Source of the DNA: Acidobacteriota bacterium
GTDB taxonomy: Bacteria > Acidobacteriota > Thermoanaerobaculia > UBA5066
Length of the DNA stretch: 44,571 nt
Direction: 5' to 3'
Assembly (NCBI GenBank): GCA_039930645.1
Contig: JBDTTJ010000002.1
Coordinates: forward strand, 1 to 44,571
Below the pieces are notes generated by a model, which had not been told where the DNA came from, did no database searches, and saw only the letters and a program-made list of their open reading frames with translations. Position numbers and translations under genes: made by a program. Of this stretch, positions 2,858 through 29,835 are shown in pieces (the first letter of the stretch is position 1; each line of letters begins with the position of its first letter).

Positions 2858-3681
2858 GCGACGACCGGCCCATCGGCCTCTTCGACTCGGGCGTGGGCGG
2901 GCTGACCGTTCTCGACGCGATCGCGCGCCGGCTCCCGCACGAGCGGCTCCTCTATCTCGGCGACACGGCGCGCCTTCCGTACGGGACGAAGTCCGCCGAG
3001 ACCGTCCGTCGCTACGCCCGGCGCGCGATCGGTTTCCTGCTCGACCACGGCGTGAAGGCCGTCGTCGTCGCCTGCAACACGGCCTCGGCGCTCGCGCTCG
3101 ACGCGATCGTCGAGATGTCGCCCGTGCCCGTGATCGGCGTCGTGGCTCCCGGTGCTGTCGCCGCCGTCGCCGCGGCGCGGGCGCGCGAGGCGGCGGGGGA
3201 GCCGCGCGGGCCGATTGCCGTCCTCGCGACCGAGGCGACCGTGGCGTCCGACGCCTACGGCCGCGCGATCCGGGCGCTGGATCCGGAGCGCGAAGTTCTG
3301 CACACGGCGTGCCCGCTCTTCGTGCCTCTGGCCGAGGAGGGCTGGACGGACAACGAGGTCGCCCGCGCGGCCGCGGCGCGGTACCTCGGGCCCGTGGGAT
3401 CCTCGGGTGCGCGCGTCGTCGTCCTCGGCTGCACGCACTACCCGCTCCTCGCGGGGACGATCGCGGCGGCGCTCCCGCCCGGAAGGGAGCTCGTCGACTC
3501 GGCGCACGCCGCGGCGGACGCGCTCGAAGCGGCGCTCCCGCCGGCCGCCCGCCGCGAGGGGAACGAGCCTGGCGAGACGCGCATTCTCGTCACGGACGCG
3601 TCGGACCGGCTCCGTCGCGTCGCGGGCCGCTTCCTCGGCCGGCCCGCGGCGGATCTCGCGCTCGTCGACCTGCCCATGTGA
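2854..3681 (+). CDS. murI: glutamate racemase
   Basis: Motifs IGLFDSGVGGLTVL, YLGDTARLPYG, VVVACNTASA, VVLGCTHYPLL. The GTG start overlaps the upstream TGA (GTGA at 2854-2857). Confidence 0.93.
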   Translation: MSDDRPIGLFDSGVGGLTVLDAIARRLPHERLLYLGDTARLPYGTKSAETVRRYARRAIGFLLDHGVKAVVVACNTASALALDAIVEMSPVPVIGVVAPGAVAAVAAARAREAAGEPRGPIAVLATEATVASDAYGRAIRALDPEREVLHTACPLFVPLAEEGWTDNEVARAAAARYLGPVGSSGARVVVLGCTHYPLLAGTIAAALPPGRELVDSAHAAADALEAALPPAARREGNEPGETRILVTDASDRLRRVAGRFLGRPAADLALVDLPM

Positions 3682-5290: not shown

Positions 5291-5365
5291 CGGGGCGTAG
5301 CGCAGCGGTAGCGCGGCTGCTTTGGGAGCAACAGGTCGCCGGTTCGACCCCGGCCGCCCCGACCA
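5291..5365 (+). tRNA. tRNA-Pro (anticodon UGG)
   Basis: Cloverleaf read by hand. Acceptor CGGGGCG/CGCCCCG; D arm GCGC-AGCGGTA-GCGC; anticodon loop TTTGGGA (UGG, G37); T arm GCCGG-TTCGACC-CCGGC; discriminator A and encoded CCA. Confidence 0.93.
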
Positions 5366-23820: not shown

Positions 23821-26205
23821 TTGGTCGCCCGCCCGGAAGATCTCCTCGAAGGCCTCAATCCCGAACAGGCCGCCGCCGTCTCGCACGGCGAAGGGCCGCT
23901 TCTCGTCCTCGCAGGGGCCGGCTCGGGGAAGACGCGCGTCCTGACGCGCCGGCTCGCGTGGCTCGTCGCGCACGGCGTCCCGCAGGAGGCGATCGTCGCC
24001 GTCACGTTCACGAACAAGGCCGCCGGCGAGATGAAGGAACGCGTCGCGAACCTCCTCGGCACCGAGCGCCCCCGCTCGTACGTCGGGACGTTCCACTCCT
24101 GGGGCGTGCGCCTCCTACGCCGCTTCGCGGACGAGGCGGGCCTCCCTCGGGGGTTCGTCGTCTTCGACTCGGACGACCAGCTCGCGGTCGTCAAGCGCGT
24201 CATGAAGGAGGTCGCGATCCCCGAGAAGTCCGCGACCCCGCGCCAGATCCAGTCGAAGATCTCCACGGCCAAGAACGAGGGCATCTCGCCCGACGACTTC
24301 CCGCGCCGCTTCGGCGACTTCCTCGGCTCGCGCCTCGCGGACGTGGCGCGCCGCTACGAGAAAACGCTCCGGGCGTCACAGGCCCTCGACTTCGACGACC
24401 TCCTCGTCCTCTCGGCCAAGCTCGTGGGCACGAACGAGAAGGTGCGCGATCTCCTCCGCCGCAGCATCCGCCACCTGCTCGTCGACGAGTACCAGGACAC
24501 GAACCGCGTGCAGGCGAAGCTCGTGAAGCTCGTGACGGGCGAGGCCGGCAACCTCTTCGTCGTGGGCGACGAGGACCAGTCCATCTACCGCTGGCGCGGG
24601 GCGGACGTGTCGAACATCCTGGAGTTCACGCGCGACTTTCCGACCGCGAAGACGGTCCGCCTCGAGCGCAACTACCGCTCGACGGCGCCGATCCTGAAGG
24701 CCGCGGGCGCGGTCGTCGCCGAGAACAGGCGCCGCCTCGGCAAGACGCTCAAGGCCACGAAGACGGGCGGGGAAAAGGTGCGGCTCGTCGCGTTCGACGA
24801 GGAGCGCGACGAGGCCCGCGAGATCATCCAGCGCGTTGCCGCGGCGCGGCGCGCCCGGCCGCAGGGCGAAGTGGCGGTCCTCTTTCGCACGAACGCGCAG
24901 TCCCGGCCCTTCGAAGACGAGCTCCTGCGCGGGAACCTGCCGTACATCCTCGTCGGCGGGACGAAGTTCTACGAGCGGGCCGAGATCAAGGACCTCCTCG
25001 CCTACCTGCGCCTCGCGCGGAACCCGGCGGATGGCGTGTCGTTCCGGCGGGTCGTCAACGTCCCCGCGCGGGGCGTGGGCGCCGCGACGCTGGAGGCGCT
25101 CGAGGCCCATGCGGTGGAGAAGGACCTTTCTCTCCTCGCGGCCCTCGACGAACTGCCCTCCGGAATGACGGAGCGGGCGCGGAAGGCCCTGACCGAGTTC
25201 CGGGACCTCGTGAAGCGCCTCGCGGACTTCGGTTCGACGGAGAACGCCGGCGCGGCCTCGCCGAACGGCGCGGCGGCGGTCATGGCGTTCGCGCTGGAGG
25301 AAACGGGCCTCGCGAAGCTCTACGAGAACACCCTCGACCCGCAGGACGAGGCCCGCCGCGAGAACCTCGACGAGCTGCTCGCGGCGGCGCGCGAACACGA
25401 GCGTGCCGCGTCCTACGGCGCCGAGGGCGACGACCCGACGATCGCGGGCTTCCTCGACGCGGTGACGCTGCGCGCGGACGCCGACGAGGCCGACGAGAAG
25501 AAGGGCATCCTCCTCATCACGCTGCACGCCGCCAAGGGCCTGGAGTTCGACGACGTCTTCCTGGCGGGCGCCGAGGACGGCTCGCTGCCGCACGCCTCAT
25601 CGCGCGACGACGACGACGCGTTCGAGGAAGAGCGCCGCCTCGCGTACGTCGGGATGACGCGCGCCAAGGAGCGCCTCACGATCTCGTGGGTCCGGCGCCG
25701 GATGGTGCGCGGAGAGTGGATGAGCCGCGACCGGTCGCCGTTCCTCGACGCGATCCCGGGCGAGGTCGTCGCCTACGAGGACATGACTTCTGGGTTCGGA
25801 GGAAGAACCGGGGAGCTTTTAGGGGGAGGGAGAAGAGGGGATTTCCTAGAAGGTGGAAGAAGCTGGTCGCGCGGCGAGGCGAGGTTCGCCTCGGGCGGCT
25901 CTCTGTTCCCCGACTACGAGAACGAATCCCAGGAACCCTCCCCCTCTTCACCTTCGAAGAAATCCCTCTTCGGCCGTCCCCCGATGCGGAACATCACCCC
26001 CGTCAGGGGGGTGATGAAGCGGACGCCGCCGCCGCCGACCGCCTCAGGCTTCCGGCGCGGGTCGAAGGTGCTGCATCCCGAGTACGGAGTCGGGGTGGTC
26101 CTTACGGTGGAAGGCTCCGGCGACGCGGAGAAGCTGGTCGTCTACTTCGACCGGGCCGGCCGCAAGAAGTTCGTCGCGAAGTTCGCGAACCTGTCGCCGG
26201 CCTAG
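23821..26205 (+). CDS. uvrD: ATP-dependent DNA helicase, UvrD/PcrA family
   Basis: Motifs LNPEQAAAV, AGAGSGKT, VTFTNKAA, DEYQDTN, YRS, TLHAAKGLEF, VGMTRA, plus a C-terminal Tudor-like VLHPEYGVGVV. The only in-frame start after the glmS stop is TTG at 23821. Confidence 0.92.
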   Translation: MVARPEDLLEGLNPEQAAAVSHGEGPLLVLAGAGSGKTRVLTRRLAWLVAHGVPQEAIVAVTFTNKAAGEMKERVANLLGTERPRSYVGTFHSWGVRLLRRFADEAGLPRGFVVFDSDDQLAVVKRVMKEVAIPEKSATPRQIQSKISTAKNEGISPDDFPRRFGDFLGSRLADVARRYEKTLRASQALDFDDLLVLSAKLVGTNEKVRDLLRRSIRHLLVDEYQDTNRVQAKLVKLVTGEAGNLFVVGDEDQSIYRWRGADVSNILEFTRDFPTAKTVRLERNYRSTAPILKAAGAVVAENRRRLGKTLKATKTGGEKVRLVAFDEERDEAREIIQRVAAARRARPQGEVAVLFRTNAQSRPFEDELLRGNLPYILVGGTKFYERAEIKDLLAYLRLARNPADGVSFRRVVNVPARGVGAATLEALEAHAVEKDLSLLAALDELPSGMTERARKALTEFRDLVKRLADFGSTENAGAASPNGAAAVMAFALEETGLAKLYENTLDPQDEARRENLDELLAAAREHERAASYGAEGDDPTIAGFLDAVTLRADADEADEKKGILLITLHAAKGLEFDDVFLAGAEDGSLPHASSRDDDDAFEEERRLAYVGMTRAKERLTISWVRRRMVRGEWMSRDRSPFLDAIPGEVVAYEDMTSGFGGRTGELLGGGRRGDFLEGGRSWSRGEARFASGGSLFPDYENESQEPSPSSPSKKSLFGRPPMRNITPVRGVMKRTPPPPTASGFRRGSKVLHPEYGVGVVLTVEGSGDAEKLVVYFDRAGRKKFVAKFANLSPA

Positions 26206-27881: not shown

Positions 27882-28396
27882 GGGCGCTCCTTCGCGGCGG
27901 GGCCGAGCGAGCGGCCCGCGAGGAGCGCGGCCGACTCCGCGTCGGCCCACGCGAGCTCCGTCTCGAGCAGGACGCGTCGTCGGCGCCGCGCGGCGGTCGT
28001 GCCGGTCGCAGCGCGCTGGAGCTCGTCGGCGAGGAGGCCGCGATATTCCTGCAGGCGCCGCATGCGGTCGGGCGGAAGGCCGCGCTCGAGGAGGGCGAGC
28101 CTCGCGAGAGTCGCGTCGTGCGGGCGGGGGAGCGCGTAGGGCTCGGCGAGCCAGTCCTTCAGCTCACGGCGGCCGGACGGCGTCACGCGGTACTCCCGCC
28201 GCGGAGGTCCCTGCGGCGAGCGCCGCCGCTTGAGGGAGACGAATCCGCCGCGCAGGAGACGGCGCAAAGCCGGGTAGATCTGGGAGAGATCCGCGTCCCA
28301 TCCACGCGCGGGATCCTCGGAGAGCCTCCGCTTGAGATCCCATCCGCTGGCCGGAGCGGTCGAGAGAAGGCCGAGCAGGACGTGCGAGAGCGACAT
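27878..28396 (-). CDS. PadR-family transcriptional regulator
   Basis: N-terminal winged-helix pattern LLGLL...SGWDLKRRL......IYPALRRLLRGGFV...Y.VT..GR.EL..WL. Confidence 0.88.
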   Translation of the reverse strand: MSLSHVLLGLLSTAPASGWDLKRRLSEDPARGWDADLSQIYPALRRLLRGGFVSLKRRRSPQGPPRREYRVTPSGRRELKDWLAEPYALPRPHDATLARLALLERGLPPDRMRRLQEYRGLLADELQRAATGTTAARRRRRVLLETELAWADAESAALLAGRSLGPAAKERP

Positions 28397-28402
28397 GCCG
28401 TG

Positions 28403-28433
28403 AGTATATGAGACTTCACATACCGCCGTGCAA
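28403..28433 (-). promoter_or_regulatory. candidate padR promoter (leaderless) with overlapping imperfect inverted repeat
   Basis: On the minus strand, TTGCAC (28433-28428) is followed by a 19-nt spacer and TATACT (28408-28403). Only 6 nt separate the -10 from the ATG at 28396, and there is no SD. The inverted repeat GTATATGAGA/CTTCACATAC (28404-28423, 7 of 10 positions pair) lies between the -35 and -10. Confidence 0.35.
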
Positions 28434-28493
28434 AACCCGAGGAATACGCTGTGGAAATCTCAGGGTCCGGGGAACGCCAGGATGGCGCCCGGA

Positions 28494-28523
28494 CAAAAAA
28501 ATAAGGGGGCTGGTGTAGCCCCC
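28494..28523 (-). terminator. intrinsic terminator downstream of the micro-ORF
   Basis: The minus strand reads GGGGGC-UACACCA-GCCCCC followed by UUAUUUUUUUUG. Confidence 0.7.
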
Positions 28524-28568
28524 GAATCCCGGAAATACCTTGAATTGGAATGGTTTGAAGTAACTAAG

Positions 28569-28631
28569 TTACTTCTTACCCTTCTTCGCCTTCTTGGTGC
28601 TCTTCTTAGCAGCTTTCTTCTTGGCCGGCAT
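28569..28631 (-). CDS. 20-aa lysine-rich micro-protein MPAKKKAAKKSTKKAKKGKK (not in the ORF track)
   Basis: ATG at 28631 and TAA at 28571-28569. Extended SD TAAGGAGGTGA at 28650-28640. AAG:AAA = 11:1 and GC3 is about 79% inside an island of about 51% GC. It has its own promoter and terminator. Confidence 0.6.
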   Translation of the reverse strand: MPAKKKAAKKSTKKAKKGKK

Positions 28632-28663: not shown

Positions 28664-28693
28664 TTGACAGTGCCGGAAGCTGCATGCTAGGTT
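28664..28693 (+). promoter_or_regulatory. candidate sigma70-type promoter for an antisense RNA
   Basis: Consensus -35 TTGACA (28664-28669), an 18-nt spacer, then -10 TAGGTT (28688-28693). Confidence 0.45.
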
Positions 28694-28699
28694 GTCCGC

Positions 28700-28834
28700 C
28701 CCTCGAAGGACGGGGACTAGCGCTTCCGGATTCTGTCGACTGCCCTGAGTCACTTGAGAGAGTCGATCGATTTCAAAAGATCTGGTTCCCGTGAGACGGC
28801 ATCGTGAATCGATCACGGTGCCGTCTCTTTTTTT
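28700..28834 (+). ncRNA. candidate ~135-nt antisense sRNA, complementary to the micro-ORF leader
   Basis: Bounded by the promoter above and the strong terminator at 28793-28834. An A/U-rich single-stranded stretch (AUUUCAAAAGAUCU) precedes the terminator. The nearest upstream + strand gene ends at 26205. Confidence 0.45.
28793..28834 (+). terminator. strong intrinsic terminator with no upstream + strand CDS
   Basis: GAGACGGCAUCGUGA-AUCGA-UCACGGUGCCGUCUC forms a 15-bp stem with one G-U pair, followed by UUUUUUU. Confidence 0.75.
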
Positions 28835-28845
28835 CTGCTGAGTGA

Positions 28846-28875
28846 ATTGTATAGAGCCTCGACGGCACGAATCAA
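28846..28875 (-). promoter_or_regulatory. candidate sigma70-type promoter of the micro-ORF transcript
   Basis: On the minus strand, TTGATT (28875-28870) is followed by 18 nt and TACAAT (28851-28846). The alternative is TATACA with a 16-nt spacer. An A-tract (AAGAAAAAAATTC) sits immediately upstream. The predicted TSS is near 28839. Confidence 0.5.
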
Positions 28876-28986
28876 GAATTTTTTTCTTGACGGGCGAAGT
28901 TTTTTCACCCGCTCGTTCGCCACCTCGCGGGGGGTCTCGCGCGCATCCGGGCTAGGATCGCGCGCGGAGAGAATCGGAGATCTCAC

Positions 28987-29835
28987 ATGACGGACGCACT
29001 CGTTCTCGCTCACTCGCCCGACTCCGACGACGCGTTCATGTTCTACGGACTGCGCGCGAACGCCGTGGACACGGAGGGCGTCACCTACACGCACACGCTC
29101 GCCGACATCGAGACGCTCAACCGGCGCGCGCTCTCGGGCGAGCTCGCGATCACGGCCGTGTCGTTCCACGCGTACGCCTACCTCGCGGACCGCTACGTGC
29201 TCCTCCCGCACGGCGCGTCGTTCGGCGACGGTTACGGCCCCTGCGTCGTGGCGCGCCGCGAGGGCGGGCCGCGCACGCTCGCCGACCTGGCCGGAAAGCG
29301 CGTGGCGGTTCCGGGAAAGCTCACGTCCGCCGCGATGTGCCTCTCGCTCTACGCGAAGGATGCGACGCCCGTCGTCATGGCCTTCGACGAGGTCGGCGAC
29401 GCCGTGAACGCCGGCACCGTGGACGCGGGCGTCGTGATCCACGAGGGCCAGCTCACCTGGAAGGACGAGGGGTTTCACCTCGTGGCGGACTTCGGCGTCG
29501 TCTGGAAGGAGGAGACGGGGCTCCCGCTACCCCTCGGCGGCAACGCCGTCCGCCGCGACCTGGGGCCCGAGCTCATCGCGCGGGTGTCGCGCGCCCTCGG
29601 CCGCTCGATCGAGTACGCCCTCGCGCACCGCGAGGATGCCCTCACGGACGCGATGCGCTTCGCGCGCGGCCTCCCCCGCGAGAAGGCCGACCGCTTCGTC
29701 GGGATGTACGTGAACGACTGGACCCGCTCCTACGGGCCGAAGGGCCGGCAAGCCGTTCGCCTCTTCCTGAGAAGGGGGGTCGAAGCCGGCATTCTCCCGA
29801 AGCTCGTCGAGCCGGAGTGGGTGGCGGAGGGTTGA
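28987..29835 (+). CDS. MqnA/MqnD-family (futalosine-pathway menaquinone biosynthesis, periplasmic-binding-protein fold) protein
   Basis: Motifs LAHSPDSDDAFMFYGL, DIETLNRRAL.GEL..TAVS.HAY and GDGYGP. GGAGA lies 7 nt upstream of the ATG. I cannot decide between MqnA and MqnD. Confidence 0.78.
   Translation: MTDALVLAHSPDSDDAFMFYGLRANAVDTEGVTYTHTLADIETLNRRALSGELAITAVSFHAYAYLADRYVLLPHGASFGDGYGPCVVARREGGPRTLADLAGKRVAVPGKLTSAAMCLSLYAKDATPVVMAFDEVGDAVNAGTVDAGVVIHEGQLTWKDEGFHLVADFGVVWKEETGLPLPLGGNAVRRDLGPELIARVSRALGRSIEYALAHREDALTDAMRFARGLPREKADRFVGMYVNDWTRSYGPKGRQAVRLFLRRGVEAGILPKLVEPEWVAEG

Follow-up and report, generated by a model that had tools for sequence, protein, structure and literature searches.

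A predicted small RNA gene, conserved in Acidobacteriota, lies antisense within the leader of a polylysine microprotein gene

When analyzing a contig of an Acidobacteriota bacterium (Thermoanaerobaculia; GenBank assembly GCA_039930645.1, contig JBDTTJ010000002.1, positions 1 to 44,571, a stretch of 44,571 nucleotides referred to here as the window), we examined the segment between padR and mqnD, where the local G+C content is ~70%. padR (28396-27878, minus strand) encodes a protein with the Pfam PadR domain and is followed farther downstream on the same strand by an unannotated gene for a 582-aa protein. mqnD (VitK2_biosynth) starts at 28987 on the plus strand and forms an operon with a DUF4149 gene. 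As the preliminary description had stated, no plus-strand CDS lies between position 26205 and the terminator region described below, and in fact none is found before 28987; the interval is occupied by minus-strand genes, namely those for the 582-aa protein and PadR and a micro-ORF. The micro-ORF (28569..28631, minus strand; MPAKKKAAKKSTKKAKKGKK, 20 aa plus stop) is preceded by a strong Shine-Dalgarno sequence (SD; GGAGGUGA, 28647-28640), with a CUGCC element upstream of it at 28657-28653. Its transcript has a predicted terminator upstream of padR (28495..28523, minus strand; GGGGGCUACACCAGCCCCC followed by a U-run), which is conserved among the relatives described below, with a different stem sequence in clade F. 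By inspection, padR has a -10 element of its own, positioned for a leaderless start. Because of this terminator and the separate padR -10, the micro-ORF is taken to be a transcription unit of its own. On the opposite strand, a predicted small RNA (sRNA) of ~135 to 137 nt (28698..28834, plus strand) has its own promoter and terminator. The whole system is compact, at <400 bp.

We collected relatives of the locus by seeding on mqnD, with one genome per species and 80 genomes in all. Two close relatives, Thermoanaerobaculia and Acidobacteriota metagenome-assembled genomes, showed 93-94% identity, and three farther relatives, with ~63% identity in MqnD and ~50% in PadR, carry the same module. The sRNA and the micro-ORF were present in exactly 5 of the 80 genomes, which are those with padR beside mqnD, and the module was absent from the other 75, including four Thermoanaerobaculia. 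A metagenome scan with a promoter-derived pattern (gap N{14,18}, CCGCCCC required) yielded 26 loci from the window's own clade, a subset biased toward the window type by a pattern that left out a clade with a 17-nt spacer and clades B to E. A search for PadR homologues and further contigs were added, which countered this bias in part. In total, 37 distinct sequences were obtained from about six clades of Thermoanaerobaculia-like Acidobacteriota from soil and sediment. The gene order is the same in every complete locus: padR, micro-ORF, plus-strand promoter, structured region, plus-strand terminator, minus-strand promoter, and mqnD. The micro-ORF and the sRNA occur together in every complete locus, including eight PadR-seeded loci that were found without use of the RNA sequence, six of which fall outside the window's clade. 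The position between padR and mqnD is fixed across clades, down to ~50% PadR identity. A literature search returned nothing matching the sRNA or the peptide.

The micro-ORF occurs in 26 distinct DNA versions encoding 19 to 25 aa. Every peptide variant has 11 to 12 lysines, no arginine, and no hydrophobic residue (the window peptide has 11 lysines in 20 aa), and I, L, V, F, W, and C are absent from all 15 full-length variants. When the 20-codon versions are compared in pairs, differences number 160 at the first codon position, 184 at the second, and 598 at the third, and from this third-position bias the micro-ORF looks translated. It is single-copy in the window, and comparison of the peptide with PDB chains and NCBIfam gave no match. 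An association of the peptide with ribosomes would be pure speculation. Gene callers either miss the micro-ORF or report only a longer ORF with an upstream start. The use of lysine with no arginine is striking against surroundings of ~70% G+C.

The predicted fold of the micro-ORF leader places the SD in a hairpin, paired to ACCUGCC and closed by CUGUCA/UGACAG. All clades share the conserved sequences GTCACCTCC and G(G/A/T)CAG, and in each of them the SD lies in a predicted local hairpin, with differing partners; such a hairpin would be compatible with a leader that needs activation. We also considered a lysine-sensing attenuation of padR by a leader peptide. By inspection this was rejected: the sequence offers no alternative pairing, padR has a promoter of its own, and no complement to the terminator arms lies in or near the purine-rich micro-ORF.

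The predicted sRNA promoter (28664..28693, plus strand) is of the sigma-70 type and has a -35 TTGACA at 28664-28669, an 18-nt spacer, and a -10 TAGGTT at 28688-28693. These elements lie where the preliminary description had placed them, and we additionally found that the hexamer is preceded by a TGC extended -10 (TGC-TAGGTT, 28685-28693). The pattern TTGACA-N16-18-TANNNT matches only once when both strands of the window (44.5 kb) are counted, whereas shuffled sequences lead one to expect 0.01 matches. Loss of these elements was sought in relatives that keep the micro-ORF and was seen in none of them: the -35 TTGACA and the TGC extension are present in all 37 distinct sequences from about six clades, the PadR-found loci included. 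The -10 is TAnnnT throughout (TAGGTT, TAGCTT, TACGTT, TAATTT, and others), and the spacer is 18 nt long in 34 sequences and 17 nt in 3, its sequence being free to vary. Constant elements over a varying spacer are the signature of a selected promoter, whose activity we predict from this pattern. A sigma-54 reading of TGGCAG-N-TTGAC was ruled out by the wrong spacing.

The sRNA ends at an intrinsic terminator (28793..28834, plus strand), with a 15-bp stem at 28793-28827 (9 G-C pairs and one U.G pair), a 5-nt loop, and T7 at 28828-28834. A terminator scan bore out this earlier assignment and ranked the site as the strongest on the plus strand within 20 kb. Taken together, terminator-like sites are no more frequent in the same 20 kb than expected (8 found versus 8.8 expected), so the site is notable for its quality rather than for its mere presence; the only long clean terminators there are this one and a minus-strand terminator at 28523-28505. 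Among the 37 relatives that keep the micro-ORF, nearly all complete loci have the plus-strand terminator. The hairpin sequence turns over between clades, and a T-run follows the hairpin on the plus strand in all of them; in the distant clade F, an unrelated hairpin occupies this place and runs into UUUGAUUUU or UUUUCAUUUU. Covariation was assessed on the aligned relatives (cross-clade alignment A3, 26 sequences), where 10 of the 13 terminator stem pairs show changes on both sides. On this alignment, 94.7% of terminator cells are paired, compared with 84.3% in shuffles, and the covariation score is 0.465, compared with 0.269; none of 500 shuffles equaled any of the observed measures. As a control, sliding the 3' partner lowered the pairing to ~50%. 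By this comparative measure, the terminator pairing is maintained by compensatory change.

The predicted transcription start site (TSS) of the sRNA is a conserved G 5 nt past the -10, and the 3' end is placed in the T-run. The fold energy of the sRNA is -63.9 kcal/mol (z = -5.9), and in the predicted fold a small hairpin at the 5' end is followed by an extended central hairpin (P1 to P3) and then by the terminator, a three-part plan common to all clades. The 5' element (GCCCCUCGAAGGACGGGG, 28698..28715, plus strand) is a C-run/G-run hairpin with a conserved loop, UCGAAGGAC; it is nearly invariant across clades A to E, and clade F has a perfect CGCCCC/GGGGCG hairpin. Its G-run has an alternative partner in the 3' strand of P1. 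In the window's clade, it is the minus strand that forms the better 5' hairpin, with 7 bp of which two are U.G; on the plus strand these two become C.A mismatches. P1 is formed by ACGGGGACUAG (28710..28720, plus strand) and CUGGUUCCCGU (28782..28792, plus strand), and 95.5% of its cells are paired. The most conserved sRNA element is a 12-mer, CUGUCGACUGCC (28733..28744, plus strand), with invariant columns in alignment A3. It reads CUGYCGACUGCC in clades A to E and CUGUCGCUGYCG in clade F, and in per-clade folds it makes up the 5' strand and the start of the loop of the apical hairpin P3 (CGACU/AGUCG).

Comparison of the two strands shows which of them the helices fit. On alignment A2, 608 of 616 helix cells are canonical on the plus strand and 541 of 616 on the minus strand. 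The plus strand has 68 G.U cells, 59 of which fall in P1 and the terminator, and 1 A.C cell. Many of the P1 cells are G.U (32 on A2 for P1 alone). Read on the minus strand, these would be A.C mismatches, and the bias recurs on the cross-clade alignment A3; P1 would therefore be unable to form on the minus strand in most sequences. By this pattern of substitutions, the helices fit the plus strand. The minus strand also folds well (z = -5.3), with helices of its own, and the sRNA and the minus-strand leader are probably both under structural selection.

Three blocks of the sRNA are invariant or nearly so in clades A to E: the 5' GYCCCUCGAAGGACGGG, the 12-mer CUGYCGACUGCC, and part of UUUCAAAGA. 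They are conserved beyond what antisense complementarity needs, which indicates an additional function; they could be sites of protein or ligand contact, recognition loops, a seed for pairing in trans, or the imprint of a leader constraint on the other strand. The sequence basis for reading the molecule as an Hfq-type sRNA is weak. It has a U7 tail and an A/U-rich stretch, UUUCAAAAGA, 15-30 nt before the terminator; in the predicted fold, part of this stretch is base-paired, and only about half of the clades retain it, with clades B, E, and F lacking it. In a scan of the window against Rfam 15 (gathering cut-offs; E <= 10), no family covered the sRNA, and a match to frnS over the terminator hairpin and the region downstream reached 19.9 bits (E 0.67) against a cut-off of 60. 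A scan of eight relatives at E <= 1 gave no match overlapping the sRNA. The sRNA is single-copy in the window, with one copy per locus. The comparison of relatives thus lends strong support to the earlier proposal that the plus strand encodes a discrete RNA of ~135 nt, equipped with a promoter and a terminator of its own and running antisense to the leader of the micro-ORF. Conservation, covariation, and the asymmetry between the strands all speak for it, and we regard it as almost certainly a real, conserved small-RNA gene.

The micro-ORF mRNA has a predicted promoter on the other side of the sRNA gene (28846..28875, minus strand), with a -35 TTGATT at 28875-28870, an 18-nt spacer, and a -10 TACAAT at 28851-28846. 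The predicted minus-strand TSS is near 28839, 5 nt beyond the T-run of the sRNA. In the relatives, the -10 is TACAAT or TAGAAT, with a weak GAAAAT in one locus (L011), the -35 is TTGNNN where readable, and the spacer is 16 to 18 nt. Directly upstream of the -35 are two UP-element-like A-tracts (GTGAAAAAACTTCGCCCGTCAAGAAAAAAATTC, 28876..28905, minus strand), of which at least the proximal one is conserved in clades A to E. We infer from their sequence and position that they act as an UP element, and the A-tract-flanked promoter suggests high constitutive expression of the microprotein.

The terminator scan found no minus-strand terminator between this promoter and the micro-ORF, so the micro-ORF leader, starting where the promoter places it, would overlap the entire sRNA. 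From the promoter positions, the leader should be ~208 nt long, with its upstream two-thirds the exact complement of the sRNA, in agreement with the preliminary description, which had also put the TSS at about 28839. The two convergent promoters are ~140 bp apart. The sRNA ends ~50 nt short of the SD and does not cover it. In nearly all clades, the predicted minus-strand start falls within a few nucleotides of the sRNA T-run, and in the distant clade the minus-strand -10 overlaps the T-run. This fixed abutment of both units suggests that the overlap itself is selected.

We consider it somewhat better than an even chance that positions 28698-28834 of the plus strand are an independent, conserved sRNA gene placed cis-antisense within the microprotein leader, acting by transcriptional interference and duplex formation. 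A polymerase starting at the microprotein promoter would cross the sRNA gene head-on and then pass the plus-strand promoter before reaching the ORF. Because this passage is forced, activity of the plus-strand promoter would gate transcription of the microprotein gene by collision or occlusion; we infer such interference from the promoter geometry. The two RNAs could also form a perfect ~135-bp duplex upstream of the ribosome-binding site, which would be open to double-strand-specific cleavage and would alter leader stability. This duplex-dependent processing is proposed from general knowledge of cis-antisense RNAs. As the sRNA leaves the SD uncovered, it would not act by blocking the ribosome-binding site directly. 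Of the possible effects of the sRNA on the microprotein, repression is the more likely.

An indirect effect on translation was also considered. In this candidate model, the leader sequence GGCAGUCGACAG would pair with CUGUC...CUGCC beside the SD, and the sRNA would release the pairing. It was rejected, as the SD-proximal hairpin is independent in equilibrium folding, and the model also fails in clade F, where a mismatch rather than covariation is found. Blocking the sRNA-complementary region left the predicted SD accessibility unchanged in 25 sequences, so no translational mechanism is evident.

Other explanations of the locus have to be weighed against this reading. The preliminary description had compared it to a type I toxin-antitoxin module, in which the polylysine peptide would be the toxin and the plus-strand RNA the antitoxin. 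The layout recalls such modules in its small ORF, its long leader with a predicted SD-sequestering hairpin, and its fully overlapping antisense RNA, which has its own promoter and terminator and is complementary to the leader over ~135 nt. Type I modules are usually patchy in distribution and often multi-copy or linked to mobile elements, whereas the locus described here is single-copy in the window and holds one syntenic position between padR and mqnD across clades, which is the behavior of a core gene rather than of an addiction module. Moreover, hydrophobic residues are missing from all 15 full-length variants of the peptide, which would be unable to span a membrane, and the A-tract-flanked promoter points to high constitutive expression. 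We therefore regard a toxin-antitoxin module as very unlikely and drop that framing, while the part of the earlier interpretation that sees an antisense-controlled microprotein locus stands. Less likely still, and the least probable of the readings considered, is that no functional plus-strand transcript exists and that the segment is a cis element of the microprotein mRNA leader, with the hairpin serving only as a 5' stabilizer. The good folding of the minus strand and the 7-bp hairpin of the window's clade, specific to that strand through two U.G pairs that are A.C on the plus strand, speak for it, and it is plausible that so basic a peptide binds the leader of its own mRNA, for example at an autoregulatory site. 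Such an element would not account for the invariant -35 and extended -10 over a varying spacer, nor for the plus-strand T-run that follows the hairpin in every clade despite the turnover of the hairpin sequence. The 32 G.U cells of P1 on alignment A2, which become A.C on the minus strand, and the same bias on A3 also argue against it.

It is also quite unlikely, in our estimate, that the plus-strand RNA is mainly the terminated form of an attenuating leader, riboswitch-like or protein-controlled, of the mqnD-DUF4149 operon. The RNA lies on the same strand as mqnD and upstream of it in every locus, its invariant blocks are set between stems of varying length, and in one subgroup (L081) a 5' motif, AAGGACGGGG, can pair with the 3' arm of the terminator over 9 positions in a masked fold (10 by manual count). 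L081 and a further locus, L123, also have no -10-like TAnnAT motif close to mqnD, so that mqnD might there be fed by read-through. In most clades, however, a GGG(C)TAnnAT motif is kept 7 to 35 nt before the mqnD start, with TAGGAT at 28953-28958 in the window, and the terminator is separated from the mqnD ATG by 153 nt and the convergent promoter. For each of the 26 sequences, masking the terminator's 5' arm costs 16 to 26 kcal/mol, and across clades no consistent alternative partner exists for the 3' arm, so that no conserved antiterminator is seen. Against an mqnD leader also stand the 75 of 80 mqnD loci that have no such leader, the four Thermoanaerobaculia among them, and the lack of a match to any Rfam family. 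A trans-acting sRNA with its main targets elsewhere, for which the overlap with the micro-ORF leader would be secondary, is unlikely too, though we rate it the least improbable of these alternatives. The invariant 12-mer CUGYCGACUGCC and the 5' loop resemble seed or protein-contact elements, and the terminator is strong with a long U tail. The RNA is nevertheless strictly linked to the micro-ORF, with the minus-strand promoter exactly positioned at its 3' end in nearly all clades, and sites complementary to the 12-mer are not enriched in the 44.5-kb window, a sample smaller than whole genomes (6 found versus 15 expected). A bolder variant, which we hold to be improbable to about the same degree as the mqnD leader, is that the peptide is a soluble polycation of 11 to 12 lysines that acts on nucleic acids or ribosomes and would be harmful unless gated by the sRNA, or that the sRNA core senses a ligand or protein and attenuates mqnD. 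If the former were true, the pair would be an RNA-controlled module of a new kind, one that follows the logic of type I toxin-antitoxin systems without a membrane-active product and is fixed beside a PadR regulator in the core genome.

Acidobacteriota are an abundant soil phylum whose regulatory RNAs are poorly known. The cis-antisense reading preferred here would give this phylum a comparatively validated sRNA locus, with two promoters and two terminators mapped by sequence and a covarying structure. The locus is compact enough to be rebuilt in a heterologous host, where interference could be separated from RNA pairing. It also offers a handle on the function of a polylysine microprotein, and no existing concept is overturned by it.

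Among known systems, the locus resembles the MtlS/mtlA pair of Vibrio cholerae, in which a discrete sRNA of ~120 to 140 nt with its own promoter is antisense to a single 5' leader with full complementarity; that pair, too, is chromosomal, single-copy, and not a toxin system. Here, in contrast, the target is the mRNA of a polylysine microprotein of 20 aa, the sRNA stops short of the ribosome-binding site, its terminator lies directly beside the promoter of the sense transcript, and the two systems have no sequence or Rfam relationship. With the type I systems ldr/rdl, tisB/istR-1, and hok/sok, it has in common that a small ORF follows a long, structured leader in which the SD is sequestered, and that an antisense RNA pairs with the leader ahead of the ribosome-binding site. 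It differs from them in a hydrophilic peptide with 11 to 12 lysines and no transmembrane segment and in its syntenic, single-copy occurrence. The prgQ/prgX locus of the Enterococcus plasmid pCF10 is similar in its face-to-face promoters 140 to 220 bp apart, in an overlap transcribed both ways, and in a short terminated RNA from one side, whereas the present locus is chromosomal, has no known signaling input, and has a short RNA that ends at a classical terminator and not by processing. In size and charge, the peptide is comparable to the tiny basic ribosomal proteins bL37, bS22, bTHX, and eL41, and its strong SD and A-tract promoter suggest that it is abundant, but it is basic through lysine only, with no arginine and no aromatic residue. 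That antisense RNAs control small ORFs in cis is well known, and on the strength of the sequence comparisons the locus is a new small-RNA family together with a new microprotein in a known regulatory layout, with a function proposed from that layout.

Comparing the microprotein encoded by the micro-ORF (28569-28631, minus strand) with its homologues in the related loci L001 to L123, we found that its length varies from 19 to 25 residues, yet the number of lysines stays constant at 11 to 12. It has no arginine, aromatic, or aliphatic residues, and the DNA around the micro-ORF is about 70% G+C, a composition that would favor arginine codons. Judged from these sequences, the constant charge of the microprotein appears to be under selection.

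On the minus strand, a pair of phased A-tracts (28876-28905) precedes the predicted micro-ORF promoter, located immediately upstream of the -35 element and with a composition that is atypical of this genome. Clades A to E keep at least the proximal one. The tracts look like an UP element and point to a promoter that is probably strong. At the other end of the micro-ORF, the stop codon lies inside a perfect 8-bp hairpin, GAAGUAAC-UUA-GUUACUUC (28557-28575, minus strand), which is found in the closest relatives of the window and is absent from the other clades. Two related loci, L081 and L123, have only about 45 nt from the minus promoter to the mqnD start, and they lack the GGGCTAnnAT motif upstream of mqnD that the other clades keep.

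In the predicted small RNA antisense to the micro-ORF leader, the G-run GGACGGGG (28698-28720 region, plus strand) can pair with the 5' C-run, giving a short 5' hairpin, or alternatively with the 3' UUCCCGU strand (28782-28792, plus strand), giving helix P1. Both pairings are possible in all clades and may constitute a conformational switch inside the small RNA.

Several independent assemblies (L118, L119, L120, L122, L126, and L127) stop within or beside the micro-ORF/small-RNA region, at a distance of 180 to 290 nt on the upstream side of padR. These breaks could stem from the AAG-repeat ORF, from homopolymer runs, or from variation among strains. Other RNA features are a minus-strand tmRNA gene with the tag ANTSDYALAA (182-542) and a plus-strand tRNA-Pro(UGG) gene (5291-5365) in the window, and, in the related locus L108, a long hairpin (2993-3106) between convergent padR and uvrD-like genes. 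Both strands of this hairpin score with an animal microRNA model, far under the threshold, and it is probably a bidirectional terminator.

The padR transcript appears to be leaderless, as in the 28396-28440 region a minus-strand TATACT (28408-28403) stands 6 nt ahead of the padR ATG (28396). The padR -10 element is overlapped by an imperfect palindrome, GTATGTGA-AGTC-TCATATAC (28423-28404, minus strand), and comparable palindromes occur in L108, L110, and L112, which suggests that PadR could regulate its own gene through this putative operator. One type of PadR operator known from the literature is ATGT-N8-ACAT, and the palindrome resembles it.
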